A stretch of DNA of 39,187 bases from a virus, in UHGV virus genome UHGV-0864147. One strand, written 5' to 3'. Under the pieces are notes generated by a model that ran no database searches, was not told the DNA's origin, and was given only the letters and a program-made list of their open reading frames with translations. Both the position numbers and the translations under genes were made by a program. This document shows positions 6,015 to 38,581 of the stretch, piece by piece. Positions within the stretch are counted from its first letter, which is position 1; each line of letters starts with the position of its first letter.

Positions 6015-6091
6015 TTACCTCTAAGGTAATTAAAAACCACATAAGACACGAAATCAATAGATTTTAGAATATTTTATTACCCAACAGGTAA
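6015..6091. promoter_or_regulatory. two TTACC-N5-GGTAA sites (6015-6029, 6077-6091)
   Basis: Perfect inverted repeats in intergenic gap inside replication operon. Confidence 0.45.
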
Positions 6092-8348: not shown

Positions 8349-8377
8349 ATAATAAATATTCACCCATAAGGTAACAA
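8349..8377 (-). promoter_or_regulatory. PR-like promoter for Cro-like gene
   Basis: Minus-strand -35 TTGTTA and -10 TATTAT with 17-bp spacer, overlapped by operator site. Confidence 0.4.
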
Positions 8378-8422
8378 AAATCAAGGATAGTTACCTATGG
8401 GGTGCATTTACCTGTTGGGTAA
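8360..8422. promoter_or_regulatory. OR-like operator cluster (three TTACC-N5-GGTAA-type sites at 8360-8374, 8391-8405, 8408-8422)
   Basis: Between divergent repressor and Cro-like genes; one perfect and two degenerate inverted repeats. Confidence 0.55.
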
Positions 8423-8477: not shown

Positions 8478-9062
8478 ATGAAAAGTATCCAGGACGTCCG
8501 CAGGCAAAATCTCAACGACTTGATCGACCGTGAATTCAATGGTGTTCAGACGCGGATGGCAGAAAAACTTGGAACTCAGGCAAATCTGGTAAACCGCTGG
8601 GCTCTTGGCAAGAAGGTTATCGGCGACCAGGTTGCGCGAAAAATTGAAGCTGCCGCCAATAAACCCCGTAACTGGCTTGATATCGATCGCTCGCTTTCTC
8701 AGGAAGGTTTTCAGCCTGTCGGCCCAAGCGACATTGGTCAGCTGGCGGCTCACAACCTGGAACGCTGGATGAGCGAAAGCCGCGACCTTTCAACACAGGG
8801 AAAACTTCACCGCGCATCCGGCGTCGCCCAGGTGACAATCAGCCGCCTGTTAAACAATGAGGTCAGCGTTTCCATTTCCACCCTGGAGAATGTTGCATCC
8901 GCATTCGGGCGTCACGGCTATGAATTACTGATTCACCCGCACGACCCTGCGACCATCAACTATGACCGCTCGCGCTACGCATTGTTACCCGAAACCGAGA
9001 AAGCAAAGATCGAAAGTTACATTGAATTTGTCATCAACCAGAACGAAAAAAACAAACAATAA
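8478..9062 (+). CDS. prophage repressor, two HTH domains, no S24 peptidase domain
   Basis: 194 aa; two XRE-like HTH segments; located at cI position; followed by strong terminator. Confidence 0.55.
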   Translation: MKSIQDVRRQNLNDLIDREFNGVQTRMAEKLGTQANLVNRWALGKKVIGDQVARKIEAAANKPRNWLDIDRSLSQEGFQPVGPSDIGQLAAHNLERWMSESRDLSTQGKLHRASGVAQVTISRLLNNEVSVSISTLENVASAFGRHGYELLIHPHDPATINYDRSRYALLPETEKAKIESYIEFVINQNEKNKQ

Positions 9063-9119: not shown

Positions 9120-9196
9120 TTACCTTAAGGGTAATTTTTTTAACTCATATCTATTGACACCAAACCAAATACGCATAATCATTACCTCAACGGTAA
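9120..9196. promoter_or_regulatory. OL-like operator pair (9120-9134 and 9182-9196) flanking a TTGACA -35 element (9154-9159)
   Basis: Two perfect TTACC-N5-GGTAA sites; -35 consensus hexamer; -10 assignment uncertain. Confidence 0.5.
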
Positions 9197-16503: not shown

Positions 16504-19110
16504 TTATTTCCTGCAAACTCCAGATGATGTTAATCCATCAAAAATAACCTGCACTCTGGCAATAACAACATCAACTCCAGAAGTCGTTTCACTTGCATAA
16601 CCAAGTTTTATTTTAGATACAATATCCTGAGTAAGTTCAGATATTTCAGTTTCTGCAATGTTACCAGAGGCCATGTGATTATCGTATGCCATAGAATGAA
16701 TTCCATTATTGACATCGATTGAACTAGTATGTTTGTGAAAAATAGATGGGTTTACCTGAAACGAATTTGAACCGATAAGATCAGAAGATACTCCATTCAT
16801 CACTGCAGTACAGCGTGGAATATTATTATCGGTTATTGTCATATGCAGACGGTTACCAGTTAACCCCTCACCAAGTGTGACATAATACGCCAATTCTCCA
16901 CCTGCATATTGTTTCCCCTCAACAATAACAGTAATCCCTCTTAATTTCTGATTAGCTAGCAAAAACTTATTACTGTCTATATAGCATTTATTTGCGGAAC
17001 CAAAAACAGCCCCTTCTAAAATATCTGATGAATAGGAATAAATAAGGTCACCTGAAACAAAGGAAAGAATATCAGATACGTTTCCTTTTTTAGATAAGTT
17101 GGGAGAATAGCTATTAACTATTTCATATTGTCCTGTGATAAAATCAAGGTAAACGCCATCAGTTTTCATCTCTTTAAAGAAAATGCTATTAAAGCATCCA
17201 TCAAGAACCGGTGGATATATTCTAGAGCTTGCATAAGCTGTTGGGTGATTCTTATTATTACCACTACCAGGCGAATAAACATCTTCGTTAGTCATTGACT
17301 TTTTAAGCTTAACAGGAATCATCGGCTGCATATCAATTTTGCAGTTCCCTGAACCACCGATGCGAGGATAAAATAAACCACCAAACCTTACAATATTACT
17401 ACTGAATAGTATTTCGTTATCGTTAAGTGTTATCTCAACGAAGTTTCCAATAAGTTTAAATTCAACTGAAAACAAACCAAGTGGAGCAGATAATTTAACA
17501 ATATTGCGCATAAAAACACCTACAGTCCCTGTTGATGCAGTATAGTGTGTGGTTTCAAAGGCAGAGCCTGTATATTTCAAGTTAATGAAATTATTATGGT
17601 ATGAAGACAATTGGAATTGAATCCCAGAACTAAGGATTTCAATATCTACAAATTGAATCCTTACGGAGTAAGAATATGATAAATCTTCATATTCATAAGG
17701 CAATGTAACATCTTTTGAAATAGTTGCCCTCACATAATTACCAGAAACCACATCAACCCCATCACGTACTGCATTAAAGTAACGATTAAAATCAATAAGC
17801 CCAGCGCCAACATACTGCGCATATGAACGAGTCCATCCTGCCATTGCGTTTCGTCCATTCTGAGCTTCTAAACTGCTAAATTCAGAGTCACTTGTGGTAC
17901 TTGATGGGAGGATATTTGTACAAAAAACAATTTCAGGCATTGAAGTAATATCATTCAGTTCAGCCATCAATTTAAAAAAAGTTTTCTGCGGGAAGTTACC
18001 AACATCCCAACCATCTCCGTCATTCATGCCAAAAGCAATAATAACAACATCAGGGTTAATATCACGAATGTAATCAATCCAGCGTCTGTTCGTGTCTGAA
18101 TACCATGGGTACTGTGAGTTATAAGAAGTAATTGCTGGTGTATCTTTTCCAAGGTCATAGTACCTCATTCCACCAATTGCTCTGTTAAATAAAGTAGAAC
18201 TTGGGAATTTCTCTTGCAAAACTCTCTTAAGATGAGCGGCAAAAATGCTTGATCGATCCACTGTGCTTATATTATATGGGGCACTTAAGCTGTCACCAAC
18301 TAACACTATTTTTGAGTTAGGCCTTGATAATCTCTCAAGTGTTTTAGATGTGACTAAACTGCAGGAATTAATGAACTGAGTACTATTTAGCGTCTGTTCA
18401 AGTGTATCACCAAATCTGGTACCAACGTATGATGATCCGTTGACACTTGCTAGCTTAAGGCATAAATCAGCAGTATCTGTAATTGAAAAAATAGGAACAG
18501 GACGTCCTAAACTGTCATACCCCTGAATTGAGTTTGCCCTAGAAGATGCTGATGCCATTTCGCTTACTATCTCAGGGAAGCGGAGTGTTTTAGATATGTT
18601 GCTGTTAATAACTCCTTTGATAGATGAGTCTGTATATTTCTTCGTGGAAGCGTCCTGAGGAAATAATGGATCATCAAGGTTACGAATACGATTGCCGAGT
18701 GCATCGTAGTAAGTGGCACTAAATGATGGTTTACGAAGAGCCAGCCGAGCCATGCTTTTGACTAACTGGATCAGCATCGTTAGCTTATCAAAAGCATCCT
18801 CATGCACTTCCGCAAAGAACTTACCCTGATTGCGCAGATCAGTTTCCTGTGTAACCGGTAGCTCTCGTGATATAGAAATCTTATAGCCATTGGCCAACGC
18901 CTTCGACAATATTACATTTCCACCATTGTATCCTCCGGCCCCGGTAACTATATAATCAGTATCAAGAGTCAGTACGGTGATATTTTCATGAATATCAACA
19001 ACCTGCACAATCAAATCAGATTTATTGAAAACCCTAAAGGCATACGGAAACGATGTCGTAACGCCGTTACCGGTGTATTCGTTGTGGTCAACTTCGGTTG
19101 AGACCGTCAT
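16504..19110 (-). CDS. tailspike: T7 gp17-like N-terminal adaptor domain plus SGNH/GDSL hydrolase domain
   Basis: 868 aa; N-terminus YTGNGVTTSFPY pattern; internal VLVGDSLSA (block I) and FGMNDG (block III) SGNH motifs; AT-rich. Confidence 0.75.
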   Translation of the reverse strand: MTVSTEVDHNEYTGNGVTTSFPYAFRVFNKSDLIVQVVDIHENITVLTLDTDYIVTGAGGYNGGNVILSKALANGYKISISRELPVTQETDLRNQGKFFAEVHEDAFDKLTMLIQLVKSMARLALRKPSFSATYYDALGNRIRNLDDPLFPQDASTKKYTDSSIKGVINSNISKTLRFPEIVSEMASASSRANSIQGYDSLGRPVPIFSITDTADLCLKLASVNGSSYVGTRFGDTLEQTLNSTQFINSCSLVTSKTLERLSRPNSKIVLVGDSLSAPYNISTVDRSSIFAAHLKRVLQEKFPSSTLFNRAIGGMRYYDLGKDTPAITSYNSQYPWYSDTNRRWIDYIRDINPDVVIIAFGMNDGDGWDVGNFPQKTFFKLMAELNDITSMPEIVFCTNILPSSTTSDSEFSSLEAQNGRNAMAGWTRSYAQYVGAGLIDFNRYFNAVRDGVDVVSGNYVRATISKDVTLPYEYEDLSYSYSVRIQFVDIEILSSGIQFQLSSYHNNFINLKYTGSAFETTHYTASTGTVGVFMRNIVKLSAPLGLFSVEFKLIGNFVEITLNDNEILFSSNIVRFGGLFYPRIGGSGNCKIDMQPMIPVKLKKSMTNEDVYSPGSGNNKNHPTAYASSRIYPPVLDGCFNSIFFKEMKTDGVYLDFITGQYEIVNSYSPNLSKKGNVSDILSFVSGDLIYSYSSDILEGAVFGSANKCYIDSNKFLLANQKLRGITVIVEGKQYAGGELAYYVTLGEGLTGNRLHMTITDNNIPRCTAVMNGVSSDLIGSNSFQVNPSIFHKHTSSIDVNNGIHSMAYDNHMASGNIAETEISELTQDIVSKIKLGYASETTSGVDVVIARVQVIFDGLTSSGVCRK

Positions 19111-19214
19111 GTTAAATCTCCAGATAGTCGCAGCACCCGTTGCGCCGCATATCTGGTTATTCTATTACCTGAAAAACCATATATGTATAGAAAGACTATA
19201 AATACCAATAGATA

Positions 19215-19229
19215 TTACCTTTATGGTAA
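19215..19229. promoter_or_regulatory. TTACC-N5-GGTAA site upstream of LexA box
   Basis: Perfect arms; 38 bp upstream of LexA box. Confidence 0.45.
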
Positions 19230-19266
19230 TTTGCAAAACGTGCTGGATAGCAAACAAATTATTTGA

Positions 19267-19286
19267 TACTGTATAAATATACAGTT
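19267..19286 (+). promoter_or_regulatory. LexA (SOS) box
   Basis: TACTGTATAAATATACAGTT, i.e. CTGT-N8-ACAG with AT-rich spacer, 2 mismatches to the 20-mer consensus; 20 bp upstream of ATG 19306. Confidence 0.7.
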
Positions 19287-19305
19287 ATTGCATGGAGAAG
19301 ATAAG

Positions 19306-19563
19306 ATGCAGCGGTATCACTATCCACTGGAAGACGGATTTACCGAAAGGATTCACACGCCGGGAGGCGTCAGGTCACTGGTGGAGGGATCGCACTTGAT
19401 GAAATTACTCCGGGATCTCGATAAGGATGGATTTAATGTCGATGGCCCACTTGCCGAACTGACTGCACTGATTAACTACGTCACCAGCTCACAGATGTCT
19501 ATGCGGGATCTGCAAACACATCTCGACTATTGTGCCGAACAATTACGAAAACAAACCAGATAA
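19306..19563 (+). CDS. small protein paralogous to antirepressor C-terminal domain; LexA-regulated
   Basis: ATG 19306 with GGAG upstream; about 45 percent identity to Ant C-terminus by eye; LexA box upstream. Confidence 0.5.
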   Translation: MQRYHYPLEDGFTERIHTPGGVRSLVEGSHLMKLLRDLDKDGFNVDGPLAELTALINYVTSSQMSMRDLQTHLDYCAEQLRKQTR

Positions 19564-19566
19564 GGT

Positions 19567-19609
19567 TTGCAATTACCAAGTGGAGTGCTTATATTTACCT
19601 TTGAGGTAA
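19567..19609 (+). promoter_or_regulatory. promoter-like element (-35 TTGCAA, -10 TATATT) with TTACC-N5-GGTAA site 19595-19609
   Basis: 17-bp spacer; perfect operator-like repeat overlapping -10/+1. Confidence 0.4.
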
Positions 19610-19877
19610 ATTTACATCGCACTCCTCTTGTGCCATAGTAATCGGGCACTGGCAAAATCCAGTGCCGGGATTGGTCTCCCGGATTACTACAGAGGCACAT
19701 ATGCCGCATAAGCGGTTTTTTTTATGTGTAAAGCGCACCTATTCTATGGTGGGCTGTGTGGGGGCACCGAAAGGTGCGCCGGGTTCCTTTGTAGCCGGTA
19801 AGACCAACTCTGCACAGTTCACCACCATCTGATTGGTCTCAGCGGTGGTGATTAACCTAACTACAAAGGTGATCGCC
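19610..19877 (+). ncRNA. structured leader / candidate regulatory RNA upstream of ant
   Basis: Hairpins at 19646-19665, 19665-19682, 19704-19715 plus U8, 19764-19777 (GAAA loop), 19819-19851; CCTTTGTAG (19786-19794) complementary to ant SD region (19861-19869). Confidence 0.3.
19704..19723 (+). terminator. weak terminator/attenuator in ant leader
   Basis: CCGC ATAA GCGG followed by eight T. Confidence 0.35.
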
Positions 19878-20570
19878 ATGAATACCAAACCTTCCATCTT
19901 TTCCTTTGAGTCATCCTGCCAGATCCGTATGTTCATGATTGACGGAGAACCTTGGTTTGTCACCAAAGATGTGTGCAATGCTTTGAATATTGATGTTACA
20001 CAAGCGAGAAAACTTGATAAAAAAGGCTGGAACAAAAAGGGGCTGTATTCAATACAGACCCCTGGTGGAATACAAGAACTATCCATCGTTTCAGAATCAG
20101 GTCTCTACATCCTTATTCTGCGTTGCAAAGAGGCAATGACTGAGGGAACGAGAGCATTCAGATTTCTTGAATGGGTTACAGGCGAGGTTCTTCCTCAGAT
20201 CCGCCGCACCGGAAGTTACATTAAAAACTCGCTACCGCAGGAAGAACGCATAAAGATGGTTGCCGACCAGGTAGCCAACGCCACGGCGTCAGCAGTAATG
20301 CAGGCGATGAAGATAGAGAACAAAACCTACAACGCCCCGCTGAAGCCCGGCTACCGCAGCCTGATTCATTCCCCGTCTGGTGTTCTCGGCCTGACGGAGA
20401 ACTCACTGCTGATGAATCTGCTGAACCAGTTACAGGAAGACGGGCACGACGTATCGGGCGCGGCGGCGGAGCTGACCACCATGTTCTGCTACATCGTCGG
20501 TGTGAGCAAATGCCTGCGTGATATCCAGACGCACGCGGAGTACATCAACGACAAGGCTGGGTTCTTCTGA
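19878..20570 (+). CDS. ant: antirepressor (Bro-N N-terminal domain)
   Basis: FSFESSCQIRMFMIDGEPWFVTKDVCNALNI and GLYILILRC / VLPQIRRTGSY Bro-N signatures. Confidence 0.8.
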   Translation: MNTKPSIFSFESSCQIRMFMIDGEPWFVTKDVCNALNIDVTQARKLDKKGWNKKGLYSIQTPGGIQELSIVSESGLYILILRCKEAMTEGTRAFRFLEWVTGEVLPQIRRTGSYIKNSLPQEERIKMVADQVANATASAVMQAMKIENKTYNAPLKPGYRSLIHSPSGVLGLTENSLLMNLLNQLQEDGHDVSGAAAELTTMFCYIVGVSKCLRDIQTHAEYINDKAGFF

Positions 20571-20635
20571 CGGGCGGCGGCACAGGGATGTGCCTTTAAA
20601 TAATTCTGTACAGATTGCAGGTGAATAGCTTACTA

Positions 20636-20650
20636 TTACCTCACGGGTGA
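20636..20650. promoter_or_regulatory. TTACC-N5-GGTGA site upstream of moron
   Basis: 9/10 arm match. Confidence 0.35.
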
Positions 20651-20739
20651 TCCATAGCGATTAGGCACCGATACAGGAGGAGCCCACATGAGAAAATTTG
20701 ACGAGTACGAAGGCGTTTAACATTCGGATAGTTTAATGA

Positions 20740-20761
20740 CGGGGCCATTAGGCCCCGTTTT
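20740..20761 (+). terminator. terminator/attenuator after 10-codon mini-ORF
   Basis: CGGGGCC ATTA GGCCCCG followed by TTTT. Confidence 0.5.
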
Positions 20762-20779
20762 CATGTCTGGAGACAGTTT

Positions 20780-21319
20780 GTGTTAAGTGAAGAAATGCAA
20801 TTTGCCATGGCTGTGGCTCAAATCGTAAGTGCAGTCGCGGTTTCGCTTGGCTTGTTCATAGCTATCGCTACTATTATTTATAATGTAAATACAGCGAGAA
20901 AAGTACACACTTCAGTATTCCTTGGTGAAAGCAGGTTTGATGTAGATTATAAGAAAGGCCTATCTACTATGCGCCGCATTCACGAATCGAACAAATCATT
21001 CCGCTCTTATATGTATCCAAGCAATGGGCAGGCTGATCTTACGGATGAAGAAAAGACAGAGAAGAGAGAAATAATTTACTGTCTAGGTTTCTACGAACGC
21101 ATGGCTGTGAGCGTGAAGCGGAAAACTTATGATGAGACCATGATTAAGGAAGTATTTTACAGCTCCGTTGTAAATAACTATCAGATTGCGCTACCTCTTA
21201 TACAAGCCATTAGAGAAAAAGAAAACATAAACACATATTTTAAAGAATATGAATGGTTGGCCACACGATGGAAGGATTGCCCATTGAAGGATAAATCCCC
21301 GTGGTACAAGTTTTGGTAA
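20780..21319 (+). CDS. AT-rich moron: single-pass membrane protein of unknown function
   Basis: 179 aa; N-terminal TM helix; own promoter-like region and terminators on both sides. Confidence 0.5.
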   Translation: MLSEEMQFAMAVAQIVSAVAVSLGLFIAIATIIYNVNTARKVHTSVFLGESRFDVDYKKGLSTMRRIHESNKSFRSYMYPSNGQADLTDEEKTEKREIIYCLGFYERMAVSVKRKTYDETMIKEVFYSSVVNNYQIALPLIQAIREKENINTYFKEYEWLATRWKDCPLKDKSPWYKFW

Positions 21320-22098: not shown

Positions 22099-24573
22099 TT
22101 ATTGCGGAGTGACATCCTGAGGTCGCCACCAGTATGTCTGGTTAAACTCTTTCTTCGAACGTTGCTCCATTTTACGCAAATAACCTGGTGAAAAATACTC
22201 CTGCATCTGGTTAAAGATCATGTGATCGAGAGCCGCCTTTAAGTACCAGAGATTCGCACCTGGCATCAGACCTTTCCCCAGCTTGACCAGATCACCACCA
22301 GTCTGCTCATTCTTCCCTTCCACAGCATTTAACGGTATGCCCTGAGCAATCTTCACTACGTCATCAACCAGACCAGCTACCGGGCCAAGCATCGACGCCA
22401 GCGCGCCGCTTCCGTACCTAGTGTGATCTGACAATAAAAAGTCACCGTAAAGGCCAAGACCACCACCTTTCAGTAGAGCACCAAGCCAAAATTTAGCAGC
22501 ATCTTCTCCTGTCATCTCACGAGGATTACGACCAGACGCAAGGTCGTTAAGTTGCTGCGACAAAGCGCCAAGAATGGTCGTACTGGCAATAAACGTCGCA
22601 ATATATGCCGCACGCCCACCAGCAGACGGCATACCCATAGCGCGTGACCAGTGACGCATAACCACCGAGATAGGGAACGATTTAAACAGGAAAACACTTC
22701 TCGTTAATTCACCTTTCCATGTTCCACGCTGAATACCAGAACCGGTTATCAGTTGCTCACGTGCTCCCGGTGTAATAACAGCCATATCAACTTCTTCAGT
22801 TACGGCACCGAGCAGTTTACGCATTGCCTCAAATTTCACGCGTTCAGGCTCACCAAGATGTTTAACTGCTGAATCAGGGATACGCATAATGCTTTCCGGT
22901 GTCAGCATCGTATTATTACCGTTCCCCCAGTCCTCCTGTTGCGCCAGCTTCCATACGCTCCAGTCTGTGTCAGTAATTCCTTTGCTTTTCAGGATACGAA
23001 AATCAGAGTCATCGAGGCTACGAAGGTCTGGTGTCCGTGACACTACTTCTCCCAGGCTTCCCATCATGGTTACGCCATAGGCGCGCTTGTGCGCATCTGA
23101 CCATGCTGTAAGCCCACTGGCACGCATTACCGCCGTTGCCGCCCAGCGAGACACTGACGGCCCCATATTATCCATCGCCCAGCGGTTAACGCTGCCAAGT
23201 AGAGATTCCATCGCCAGACCAGCGCGGCGCGCCCGCGCAAGTTCTGTACGGTTCGTTGGGTCCATAGCTTCAAGCTGGTTGCGGAATAACTGGTTCATTG
23301 GAAGGTTGGTAACCTTCGCAGACAGATACATGGTTCCAAGATCAGAGAACGATGACAGCAACGCGGATCCGAGTCTGCTGGCAACCAGCCAGTTGCGGAT
23401 ATTGTCAGACCATCGCGCGATGTGCGGATTTGCTACAGGCTGTGTCTTTCCGGAAATAAAGTTGTACAGATTCTCTGTGTTGTTCGCCAGCCGCTCGACT
23501 TTACCGGTTTTACTCGGGTTAGCTGTTGCCGTTTCTGCCTTCACCTGATCAAGAAGAGAGCGGAAAACATGATCTGGGTTTGGGCCATATGTTTCCACCA
23601 GTGCAATATCTTTACTGATACCTTCCAGGTGACCGACCATGATTTCCCATAGAGAGCGATCGCCATAAAGTTGCTGATATTGCAGATAGGAATCTGCATC
23701 TTTGAAATGTATCTGTCGTGATGCATTACCACGGTTAGCACGTGCGCCGGAAATTCGCATTCCGGTATCAGTAAGCTTATTCAGCCCACCAGTAGCGATC
23801 GTGTTATAAGCCTCTCCAAGAAATGCAGACAACTCGGCATCGTTCATCAGTTGTCCATCGGCTCGGATATAATATTTGCGATCCAGCTTACCTATAACAT
23901 CGCTAACCCACTTATCCTTTGATACCGCCCCAACCTTTTCCATAGAATGATGTTGAGGGATCCCCCAGTTTTCGAGATAGCCAATGTCCCCGCCAGCATC
24001 ATTAAACCGGCGGCGCAGTAGATCTGTCACTTCTCTCCACGCCTTAGCACCTTTTCTTGCTTTAGCATTGCCAGTATTTTGTCCTCGCATTTCATATACC
24101 AGGTCACGCACGCCAGCTTCATCTTCAAACAGGCCAAAAAAGCGAGGATCAACTGCTTCAAATGCCTCCTGCAATTGACTCAATGCATAATCACGAGTGG
24201 CTTTTGTTCTGGACTCAACAGAGAGGAAATTCGATTTACCGTCTGCATTAAAAGCAATAGTACGGTTAAGAGCGCCAAGTTTCCCATCAGCCCCTTGATA
24301 GCTATTGATAAATTTATCCAATCTCTGACGTGCGGCTATAGTGAGGGCCACACGACGTTTCTTTAATGCCGCTTCTCGCTGTAATTCTTCAGATGCCAAT
24401 TGTGCTGCTCGATATAGCCGCTCTGATTCGGAAAGTTGTCTCCACGACATCGGGTCATCACGAGCAATGGAGCGCATATTTCGATAAATGCGGTCTTCAA
24501 TGTTCTGTATTTCTCGCGCCGTTAACGTGCGCTGCGCCGCCTGCTGAACCGCTTGTATACATTCCTGTCTCAT
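22099..24573 (-). CDS. large virion protein (internal/ejection protein candidate)
   Basis: 824 aa in structural operon. Confidence 0.5.
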   Translation of the reverse strand: MRQECIQAVQQAAQRTLTAREIQNIEDRIYRNMRSIARDDPMSWRQLSESERLYRAAQLASEELQREAALKKRRVALTIAARQRLDKFINSYQGADGKLGALNRTIAFNADGKSNFLSVESRTKATRDYALSQLQEAFEAVDPRFFGLFEDEAGVRDLVYEMRGQNTGNAKARKGAKAWREVTDLLRRRFNDAGGDIGYLENWGIPQHHSMEKVGAVSKDKWVSDVIGKLDRKYYIRADGQLMNDAELSAFLGEAYNTIATGGLNKLTDTGMRISGARANRGNASRQIHFKDADSYLQYQQLYGDRSLWEIMVGHLEGISKDIALVETYGPNPDHVFRSLLDQVKAETATANPSKTGKVERLANNTENLYNFISGKTQPVANPHIARWSDNIRNWLVASRLGSALLSSFSDLGTMYLSAKVTNLPMNQLFRNQLEAMDPTNRTELARARRAGLAMESLLGSVNRWAMDNMGPSVSRWAATAVMRASGLTAWSDAHKRAYGVTMMGSLGEVVSRTPDLRSLDDSDFRILKSKGITDTDWSVWKLAQQEDWGNGNNTMLTPESIMRIPDSAVKHLGEPERVKFEAMRKLLGAVTEEVDMAVITPGAREQLITGSGIQRGTWKGELTRSVFLFKSFPISVVMRHWSRAMGMPSAGGRAAYIATFIASTTILGALSQQLNDLASGRNPREMTGEDAAKFWLGALLKGGGLGLYGDFLLSDHTRYGSGALASMLGPVAGLVDDVVKIAQGIPLNAVEGKNEQTGGDLVKLGKGLMPGANLWYLKAALDHMIFNQMQEYFSPGYLRKMEQRSKKEFNQTYWWRPQDVTPQ

Positions 24574-34133: not shown

Positions 34134-34184
34134 CTTCTTTCTCCATTAGTGGGTCTGTTACGACCAACAGGTTAATAACAGGCG

Positions 34185-38145: not shown

Positions 38146-38182
38146 TTGACATTTAACGCGTGAATTATTACCTTTCAGGTAA
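38146..38182 (+). promoter_or_regulatory. TTGACA -35-like hexamer with TTACC-N5-GGTAA site 38168-38182
   Basis: Perfect operator-like repeat 17 bp downstream of consensus -35 hexamer; on same strand as tRNA. Confidence 0.4.
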
Positions 38183-38504: not shown

Positions 38505-38581
38505 GTGGCATTAGCTCAGTTGGACAGAGCAACCGCCTTCTAAGCGGTTGGTCGCAGGTTCGAATCCTGCATGCCACGCCA
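38505..38581 (+). tRNA. tRNA-Arg (anticodon UCU)
   Basis: 77 nt cloverleaf: acceptor GTGGCAT/ATGCCAC, D-arm GCTC..GAGC, anticodon stem ACCGC/GCGGT with loop CTTCTAA, T-arm GCAGG TTCGAAT CCTGC, encoded CCA. Confidence 0.85.

Follow-up and report, generated by a model that had tools for sequence, protein, structure and literature searches.

Two kinds of described genetic switch come closest to the one considered here, which occupies positions 19200-20570 of the 39,187-nucleotide (nt) viral genome UHGV-0864147 (the whole of this stretch is hereafter called the window). The first is that of phage SPC32H, for which the 2013 abstract of Kim and Ryu is said to report that the repressor, Rep, stays uncleaved during the SOS response and that the antirepressor, Ant, is repressed by LexA; its relative SPC32N is reportedly a point mutant of SPC32H in the LexA site, in which Ant is made constitutively. 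A later paper, itself citing structural work, states that the SPC32H Ant tetramer associates with two dimers of Rep and disrupts the tetrameric, DNA-binding form of Rep (PMC9638917), and one passage of a review cites the same phage study among the cases where self-cleavage of LexA permits antirepressor synthesis (Kim and Ryu 2013, in PMC7380047). Uetakevirus prophages, the group concerned here, are inducible by mitomycin C and also by a DNA-damaging microcin. The second kind of switch is the immI module of phages P1 and P7, which comprises a c4 antisense RNA followed by icd and ant, together with an operator, Op51, controlled by the C1 repressor. Citron and Schuster, in 1990, and Heinrich et al., in 1995, are said to have described this architecture, the pairing of C4 through two elements, and the specificity variants that separate P1 from P7. 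A related arrangement is found in Gifsy-1, where translation of a read-through mRNA is activated by the short RNA IsrK, and where a processed RNA, STnc1160, with complementarity to IsrK requires the isrK promoter (Hershko-Shalev et al. 2016, PMC4825925).

The locus examined here combines elements of both kinds of switch. We conclude that it probably consists of two antirepressor transcription units directed against one non-cleavable repressor, and not of one LexA operon: a first unit (19214-19563) with the small gene ant1 under a LexA box, and a second (19567-20570) in which an IsrK-like leader and a C4 RNA precede ant2, a gene of the Bro-N type. The parts of these units, their orthologies and the pairings between the RNAs are established by sequence and homology. 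The window comes from a temperate phage of the phiV10/epsilon15 type (Uetakevirus); its segment 19100-20700 is 98% identical to that of Escherichia phage EC.W1-9 and 91-95% identical to those of phiV10, TL-2011b, ZX5 and related E. coli podophages of this genus, and a search with the ant1 protein also picks up the Salmonella members epsilon15, SPC32H/SPC32N and SPN1S.

The original prediction had read the region as a single LexA-controlled module in which the Bro-N gene was the antirepressor and the small open reading frame (ORF) was incidental. Its landmarks hold: the LexA box at 19267-19286, the small ORF at 19306-19563 (ATG to TAA), the Bro-N ORF at 19878-20570, the exact TTACC-N5-GGTAA site at 19215-19229, and a repressor at 8478-9062 with two helix-turn-helix (HTH) domains, the N-terminal HTH-like match being weak, and no S24 peptidase match in Pfam. 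The idea that SOS induction acts through an antirepressor released from LexA, rather than through self-cleavage of the repressor, agrees with the mechanism reported for SPC32H, but the effector is the small ORF and not the Bro-N gene. The role assigned to the Bro-N gene is not supported, as the small ORF is the orthologue of SPC32H Ant and stands under the LexA box. Nor could the Bro-N gene be kept within the LexA module: an operator-bearing promoter region, a terminator and C4 separate the two units, and some relatives have an insertion between them while others have no Bro-N gene at all.

The gene ant1 (19306-19563, plus strand; ATG at 19306, TAA at 19563) follows a GGAG Shine-Dalgarno sequence at 19294-19297 and encodes a protein of 85 amino acids (aa), which matches chain E of Protein Data Bank (PDB) entry 5D50 ("Anti-repressor protein") over aa 2-84 with an E value of 3.5e-46. 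Ant1 is 87% identical to the product of the gene annotated "ant" in KC911856, an annotation that SPC32H and SPC32N both carry; its only PHROG matches are phrog_450, phrog_15539 and phrog_1760, and it has no match to any Pfam or NCBIfam family. The repressor gene rep (8478-9062, plus strand) is likewise the orthologue of SPC32H rep, its product matching chain A of 5D50 ("Repressor") over aa 1-190 (E 4e-42). Rep has a Pfam HTH_3 match at aa 106-147 and another, weaker HTH-like match near its N terminus (aa 21-61), and its C-terminal domain aligns with that of SPC32H Rep (5D4Z); no Peptidase_S24 match, the mark of self-cleaving repressors of the lambda CI/LexA type, was found for it in Pfam at E<=0.01.

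The LexA box (SOS box) of ant1, TACTGTATAAATATACAGTT at 19267-19286, agrees with the consensus TACTGTATATATATACAGTA at 18 of 20 positions and ends 19 nt before the ATG. Scoring it with a LexA position weight matrix (PWM), as had been proposed, gave 27.45 bits; the matrix, made with 20 E. coli LexA sites of the literature, gives approximate scores, but the box stands above all 20 of these reference sites (the best has 26.4 bits), with the next-best site in the window at 10.7 bits and the maximum over 500 shuffles at 20.2. Three copies of the motif CTGT-N8-ACAG are present in the window, where 0.41 would be expected, and only the copy at 19267-19286 has an A/T-rich spacer; those at 34155 and 38697, with G/C-rich spacers and PWM scores of at most 10.7 bits, were rejected as LexA sites. 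Aligning the intergenic region upstream of ant from seven phages places the window box and the SPC32H box in identical columns, and SPC32N differs from SPC32H there by ACAG>AAAG in the right half-site, their sole difference across 218 aligned nt; the box is therefore judged orthologous to the one mutated in SPC32N. CTGT-N8-ACAG is retained in five of the six aligned relatives, and Klebsiella phage ST512-KPC3phi13.3 (L006) has a box with one mismatch (ATGT for CTGT). The box is thus genuine and conserved by descent, and its orthology predicts that LexA binds it. Since the small ORF is the orthologue of SPC32H Ant and its box is orthologous to the SPC32H box, the LexA-controlled antirepressor is, as judged from orthology, the small ORF at 19306-19563 and not the Bro-N gene, which is what was already known for this phage group. 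The box presumably overlaps the ant1 promoter, for whose exact -10 our best guess is TACTGT at 19267-19272, preceded after a 17-nt spacer by TGGATA at 19244-19249. This pair is as unconvincing, and as far from uniformly conserved, as three other manual candidates that were set aside (TTGCAA-17-ACAAAT, TTGATA-17-TATTGC and TAGCAA-18-TATAAA).

The contents of the 314-bp gap between ant1 and ant2 had been overlooked in the original prediction. Its plus strand begins with a promoter-like site found by scanning, Pa (TTGCAA-17-TATATT, 19567-19595), whose TTGnnn and TATnaT are retained in five relatives, including those with an upstream insertion, and whose -10 abuts or overlaps a second Rep operator, TTACCTTTGAGGTAA at 19595-19609. 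This operator has the exact motif and is present in every relative that has the Bro-N module. On its other side lies a further promoter-like site, Pb (TTTACA-17-CATAGT with an upstream TG, 19611-19639, plus strand), which includes a block, TGCCATAGT, invariant in six phages, and whose predicted start at about 19646 coincides with position 1 of the Rfam isrK model. From there extends an IsrK-like leader RNA (19646-19722, plus strand; RF01394, 74.7 bits against a gathering score of 50), overlapped by a match to RF03163, c4-a1b1 ("a1, b1 targets of C4"), that at 39.9 bits is below its gathering score of 46.7. An intrinsic terminator, a hairpin followed by a T-run, closes the leader (19703-19723, plus strand), and in this phage the terminator scan found none between the ant1 stop codon and position 19703. 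EC.W1-9 (L011, 1965-3017) and TL-2011b (L010, 1965-2819) have, exactly behind the stop codon of ant1, an insertion of about 1 kb whose ORFs are on the opposite strand; in EC.W1-9 a duplication of about 16 bp of the ant1 3' end marks the junction. Despite this insertion the operator, Pb and a Pa-like promoter (with a diverged -35 hexamer) are still found with the module in both phages, and we therefore assign the promoter block to the Bro-N unit. In SPC32H and epsilon15, a terminator follows ant and the entire Bro-N unit is absent.

The C4 antisense RNA of the second unit (19742-19829, plus strand) matches RF01695 over its full length (1-87) with 78.6 bits against a gathering score of 45. As its one sign of a possible release from a longer transcript by RNase P, it has a tRNA-like 3' CACCACCA at 19820-19827. 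It has two antisense elements on the plus strand, recognized by complementarity and co-variation: CCTTTGTAG in a hairpin loop at 19786-19794, complementary to CTACAAAGG at 19861-19869, and AGACCAA at 19801-19807, complementary to TTGGTCT at 19833-19839. The former target spans the AAGG Shine-Dalgarno sequence of ant2, 8 nt ahead of the ATG at 19878. Copies of both targets occur in the IsrK leader upstream of C4 (TTGGTCT at 19671-19677 and CTACAGAGG at 19687-19695, plus strand), and in the minimum-energy fold of 19646-19900 these copies pair in cis with the C4 loops (z -4.2). Two specificity types are found across six aligned phages. The window, EC.W1-9 and Tyrion have AGACCAA/TTGGTCT with CCTTTGTAG/CTACA(A/G)AGG, the type also found in the Klebsiella phage when it was aligned separately; phiV10, ZX5 and TL-2011b have ACGCCAA/TTGGCGT with CCTTT-TAG/CTA-AAAGG. 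In every genome the two substitutions (GC<>CG and AT<>GC) and the 1-nt deletion that distinguish these types go together in C4 and in both of its target copies, upstream and downstream, and cognate duplexes are predicted to be 6-9 kcal/mol more stable than cross-type duplexes. The isrK-C4-Bro-N arrangement itself is widespread, occurring in at least 237 phage records, among them Stx phages and APSE; the APSE-7 record annotates a' and b' regions.

A 28-codon ORF (19746-19832) starts at a conserved AUG in the 5' end of C4, lies entirely within C4 and ends 45 nt before the ant2 ATG. Its counterparts are annotated as "ash family protein" in ZX5, "orf34" in VT2-Sakai and orf45 in Gifsy-1; that it is translated is doubtful, because the structure of the RNA accounts for its conservation.

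The two units would work as follows. In the lysogen, LexA on 19267-19286 would shut off ant1; DNA damage would remove LexA, and the 85-aa Ant1 then produced would bind Rep and take the Rep tetramer off its TTACC-N5-GGTAA operators throughout the genome. The second unit would be held by three layers: Rep at the operator between Pa and Pb, termination at IsrK, and occlusion of the ant2 ribosome-binding site by C4. Most transcripts would stop at the IsrK terminator; in the read-through RNA, which carries C4 and ant2, the two elements of C4 would pair upstream of ant2, with its Shine-Dalgarno sequence included, and block translation. Because the IsrK leader has a second copy of both target sites, it could sequester C4 in cis or in trans. 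LexA would thus affect Ant2 only indirectly, and by two possible routes: inactivation of Rep by Ant1 would derepress Pa and Pb, or transcripts from the ant1 promoter could read into the second unit, a route left available by the lack of a terminator between ant1 and the IsrK terminator in this phage.

There is an alternative explanation for one part of this scheme, the first Rep operator (aTTACC-N5-GGTAAt at 19214-19230, with the exact motif TTACCTTTATGGTAA at 19215-19229), which lies between ant1 and the divergent tailspike gene (16504-19110, minus strand). Rep sites of the form TTACC-N5-GGTAA are spread over the whole genome, with nine exact and seven one-mismatch copies in the window against 0.85 expected and a 17-bp consensus of aTTACCttwaaGGTAAt; they are mostly intergenic (for example, 2536-2568, 6015-6091, 8360-8422, 9120-9196 and 38168-38182). 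Several of them form pairs (2536/2554, 6015/6077, 8360/8408 and 9120/9182, with centre-to-centre distances of 18, 62, 48 and 62 bp), and two of these pairs flank rep. Such pairing is consistent with a tetrameric repressor that has two DNA-binding units, and it is reminiscent of P1, whose C1 operators are likewise dispersed. In the GenBank record of epsilon15 the equivalent sites are annotated as "repressor" protein_bind, including one upstream of gp19, which is its ant. The original prediction took the first operator to suggest dual control by LexA and the phage repressor. The operator sits upstream of every plausible ant1 -35, and it may serve the ant1 promoter, the tailspike promoter or both, or it may form a loop to the site at 19595.

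Indeed, the chance that this operator has no part in ant1 control falls only a little short of even; it would then serve a leftward tailspike/lysis promoter or act as an anchor for looping, and ant1 would be controlled by LexA alone. The operator is at least 14 bp upstream of any plausible ant1 -35, and the plus-strand insert cuts the tailspike gene off from the late operon, so that this gene needs a promoter of its own within the 195-bp gap in which the site lies. The epsilon15 record, moreover, places the equivalent operator, plus an IHF site, before the tailspike gene, and the gap holds an invariant minus-strand TAGAAT (19164 to 19159). Opposed to this are the fixed offset of 54 nt between operator and LexA box in the six relatives with the exact box motif, which suggests a constraint involving the ant side, and the possibility that a tetrameric Rep with two DNA-binding units bridges 19215 and 19595 and so encloses ant1. 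In the Klebsiella phage the spacing between operator and box is near-identical. Our search for a leftward tailspike promoter found only a weak TACATA-17-TAGAAT. It is the minus-strand reading of a block, ATTCTATTACC...AAACC.TATATG (19159-19190), that is invariant in seven phages, and a lone GGTAAT half-site abuts its -10; we regard it as a candidate for the promoter that serves the tailspike and lysis genes.

The second antirepressor of the two-unit reading, Ant2 (19878-20570, plus strand), is a fusion of a Bro-N domain at aa 16-106 (Pfam PF02498, E 1.6e-13, 51.5 bits against a gathering score of 25.6) with an Ant-like C-terminal domain at aa 149-225. The latter matches SPC32H Ant (5D50_E, E 4.9e-14) and is 43% identical to Ant1 of the window; by this sequence evidence the C-terminal half of Ant2 is a paralogue of Ant1. 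Residues common to Ant1 orthologues and Ant2 C-domains include Y-x2-P, G, IH(T/S)P-x-GV and S-x-LM, as well as a QTH motif that is missing only from the truncated phiV10 copy. The "ORF4 anti-repressor" of ZX5 is 80% identical to Ant2 overall, and the C-terminal halves are identical. On overexpression of ZX5 ORF4 the number of prophages fell from about 10^9 to 10^6, or some 1000-fold, and the repressor transcript fell as well, in a study in which neither the small Ant nor the LexA box nor the RNAs were recognised (PMC9782041). Ant2 most likely also inactivates Rep, to which it would bind as Ant1 is predicted to.

Three observations bear on the history of this domain. In phiV10 (L002, 3071-3750), the Bro-N gene gp23 is frameshifted within the Ant-like C-domain (...SLLMNRTTGMMYQARRRS*), and a 29-codon ORF is annotated after it. 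TL-2011b (L010, 4960-5212, minus strand) has a third copy of the Ant-like C-domain, 97% identical to window 20341-20593, located at the end of another gene, which has the opposite orientation; the domain thus seems to have been shuffled among N-terminal partners. Finally, in the Klebsiella phage ST512-KPC3phi13.3 (L006, 2495-2752), the small Ant1 has the Ant2-type motif DGHDVSGAAAEL in place of DGFNVDGPLAEL, which suggests recombination between the two paralogues.

It is nonetheless conceivable, if unlikely, that Ant2 is not an antirepressor of its own Rep, that its C-domain is an oligomerisation module only, and that the target of the Bro-N protein lies elsewhere, for example in superinfecting phages, in host or foreign DNA, or in the repressors of prophages resident in the same cell. 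Such a role would suit a module that is missing from the Salmonella relatives, frameshifted in phiV10 and shuffled among phages, as the third domain copy of TL-2011b illustrates; the isrK-C4-Bro-N cassettes, moreover, occur in many unrelated temperate phages with unrelated repressors, and the function of the Bro-N domain is itself undefined. What makes this improbable is that the C-domain has kept the motifs common to all Ant1 orthologues (Y-x2-P, IH(T/S)P-x-GV, S-x-LM and, where intact, QTH), that a Rep operator sits on the ant2 promoter, and that a protein 80% identical to Ant2, ZX5 ORF4, had the effect on prophage counts and repressor transcript described above.

We consider it very improbable that the whole region is a single LexA-controlled operon, with the Bro-N protein as its SOS-induced antirepressor and the small ORF as an accessory. 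The two genes do lie on the same strand, only 314 bp apart, and with no terminator before 19703 transcripts from the LexA-controlled promoter would enter the second unit; the Bro-N protein is also annotated as an anti-repressor in relatives, and the ZX5 overexpression data support such an activity. Yet the small ORF is orthologous to the characterised Ant of SPC32H, and both SPC32H and epsilon15 manage with a LexA box and a small ant in the absence of any Bro-N gene; between the two genes stand an intrinsic terminator, promoter-like sites, an operator and a C4 directed at the ribosome-binding site; and in EC.W1-9 and TL-2011b ant1 and ant2 are kept apart by some 1 kb of genes on the opposite strand. 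A chance origin of the LexA-like palindrome, or its survival as a relic with no function, is effectively refuted already, for although palindromes do arise by chance, and two further CTGT-N8-ACAG matches occur in the window, this one scores 27.45 bits against a shuffle maximum of 20.2, keeps its position over the aligned relatives, and has a broken half-site in a single relative, SPC32N, which is reportedly the constitutive-Ant mutant.

Several points nonetheless weigh against the two-unit reading. Binding of LexA, Rep, Ant1 and Ant2 in this phage is deduced from orthology, and use of the promoters likewise from their sequence; Rep, in particular, is only about 50% identical to SPC32H Rep. The core promoter of ant1 is elusive, a consensus scan of the plus strand from 19200 to 19300 having returned nothing at 9/12 or better. 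Rep at 19595-19609 may repress the second unit or, in the case of Pb, could even activate it, and either Pa or Pb or both could be used. A translationally coupled, icd-like ORF was looked for between c4 and ant2, and the only ORF found there is the 28-codon one internal to C4. The frameshift in phiV10 removes most of the Ant-like domain, so that the species' reference phage may lack a functional Ant2, and the Salmonella relatives have no Bro-N module; the second unit is therefore dispensable.

A more tentative extension of the two-unit reading, which we would not rate as likely, is that the units form an SOS-triggered, two-stage latch joined by both RNA and protein. The release of Ant1 would free the Rep operators, including the one between Pa and Pb. 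At the same time the ant1 mRNA, having no terminator of its own, would end at the IsrK terminator and thus acquire a 3' untranslated region bearing a mimic of the C4 target, as it would in about 280 complete E. coli genomes where ant1, isrK and C4 are likewise contiguous. SOS would in this way directly supply a sponge for C4 and license the translation of Ant2, and Ant2, which shares the presumed Rep-binding domain of Ant1, would make induction irreversible. Were this so, the two C4 types would add an RNA-based layer of immunity among uetakeviruses that are otherwise homoimmune.

The arrangement is common in its host. The ant1-ant2 region is found in 542 of 5,426 complete E. coli genomes in RefSeq, and the contiguous ant1-isrK-C4 arrangement in 281; several of the matches listed stop at window position 19563 (query position 364), where the insertions of EC.W1-9 and TL-2011b also set in. 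The small Ant appears only as a "hypothetical protein" among the E. coli RefSeq matches listed, and in the records of the relatives the isrK and C4 RNAs are without any annotation and the Bro-N gene usually carries the label "anti-repressor". Our results imply that the LexA-responsive gene of phiV10-type E. coli prophages is the 85-aa "hypothetical protein" ORF, and that the Bro-N gene called "anti-repressor" in these prophages is wired differently from ant1. They also describe a compact and widespread system, in which one repressor faces two paralogous antirepressors, the one controlled by the LexA protein and the other by an antisense RNA. With it one can study how unrelated immunity systems come to incorporate immI modules of the P1 type, and what IsrK contributes relative to C4.

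The region has the same neighbours in phiV10 and epsilon15 as in the window, the tailspike gene on one side and a gene for an 824-aa virion protein (22099-24573) on the other. Downstream of ant2 come, in order, a one-mismatch operator (20636-20650), a strong Shine-Dalgarno sequence with a 10-codon mini-ORF (20688-20720, MRKFDEYEGV), a GC hairpin with TTTT behind it (20740-20761) and, last, a gene of the DUF4760 type (20780-21319), so that 20636-20762 looks like a leader-peptide/attenuator layout ahead of an accessory gene. PADLOC gave no match for Ant2, the DUF4760 protein or two other neighbouring proteins, and NCBIfam none for Ant2 or the DUF4760 protein. Elsewhere in the window, a tRNA-Arg gene (anticodon TCT; 38505-38581, plus strand) lies near operator-like sites at 38168 and 38785.

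How, then, does this locus compare with the systems already described? The logic of ant1 is that of Tum in coliphage 186, GfoA/GfhA in Gifsy-1/-3, Tum in Fels-2 (Lemire et al. 2011, PMC3121763) and AntC in N15, where, in the terms of one passage of a review (PMC7380047), LexA keeps shut the promoter for a small protein, and this protein in turn inactivates a non-cleavable repressor. The Pfam, PHROG and NCBIfam matches reveal no sequence relationship between Ant1 and any of these proteins, and the likeness is therefore one of analogy and not of family membership. The SPC32H switch (Kim and Ryu 2013; Kim et al. 2016; PDB 5D50, 5D4Z) is far closer, for it shares with the window the genus, the orthologous small Ant, the orthologous two-domain Rep without S24, the LexA box in matching columns upstream of ant, the operator 54 nt upstream and the position beside the tailspike gene. 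It differs in the limited identity of its Rep and in having a terminator right after ant and no second unit, whereas ant1 of the window runs into an IsrK/C4/Bro-N-Ant module.

This second unit finds its counterpart in the immI of P1 and P7, with which it shares a C4-family RNA (RF01695), an antirepressor cargo, a repressor operator at the promoter, two antisense elements facing a downstream pair of sites that overlies a ribosome-binding site, a further pair of such targets ahead of C4, and specificity variants that arise by co-varying changes, as between P1 and P7. Here, in contrast, C4 targets the Shine-Dalgarno sequence of the antirepressor itself, with no coupled icd gene; the upstream copy of the targets forms part of a terminated small RNA of the IsrK type; the cargo is a Bro-N/Ant-domain fusion; and the repressor is of the SPC32H type and not C1. 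The isrK-orf45 (STnc1160)-anrP region of Gifsy-1 likewise has an isrK-family RNA with a terminator, leaky in that phage, upstream of an antirepressor gene, a structured downstream RNA complementary to IsrK, and a translation of the antirepressor that is tied to the interplay of the RNAs, which in the window is suggested by their pairing. It differs in that anrP translation is coupled to orf45, while the C4-internal ORF of the window stops 45 nt before ant2, and in that Gifsy-1 is a lambdoid siphophage with another repressor, for which no Rep-type operator is reported. The locus thus embodies no new principle, since each of its halves has an experimentally studied precedent, SPC32H for the one and P1 and Gifsy-1 for the other; its noteworthy detail is that two paralogous antirepressors face one and the same repressor.

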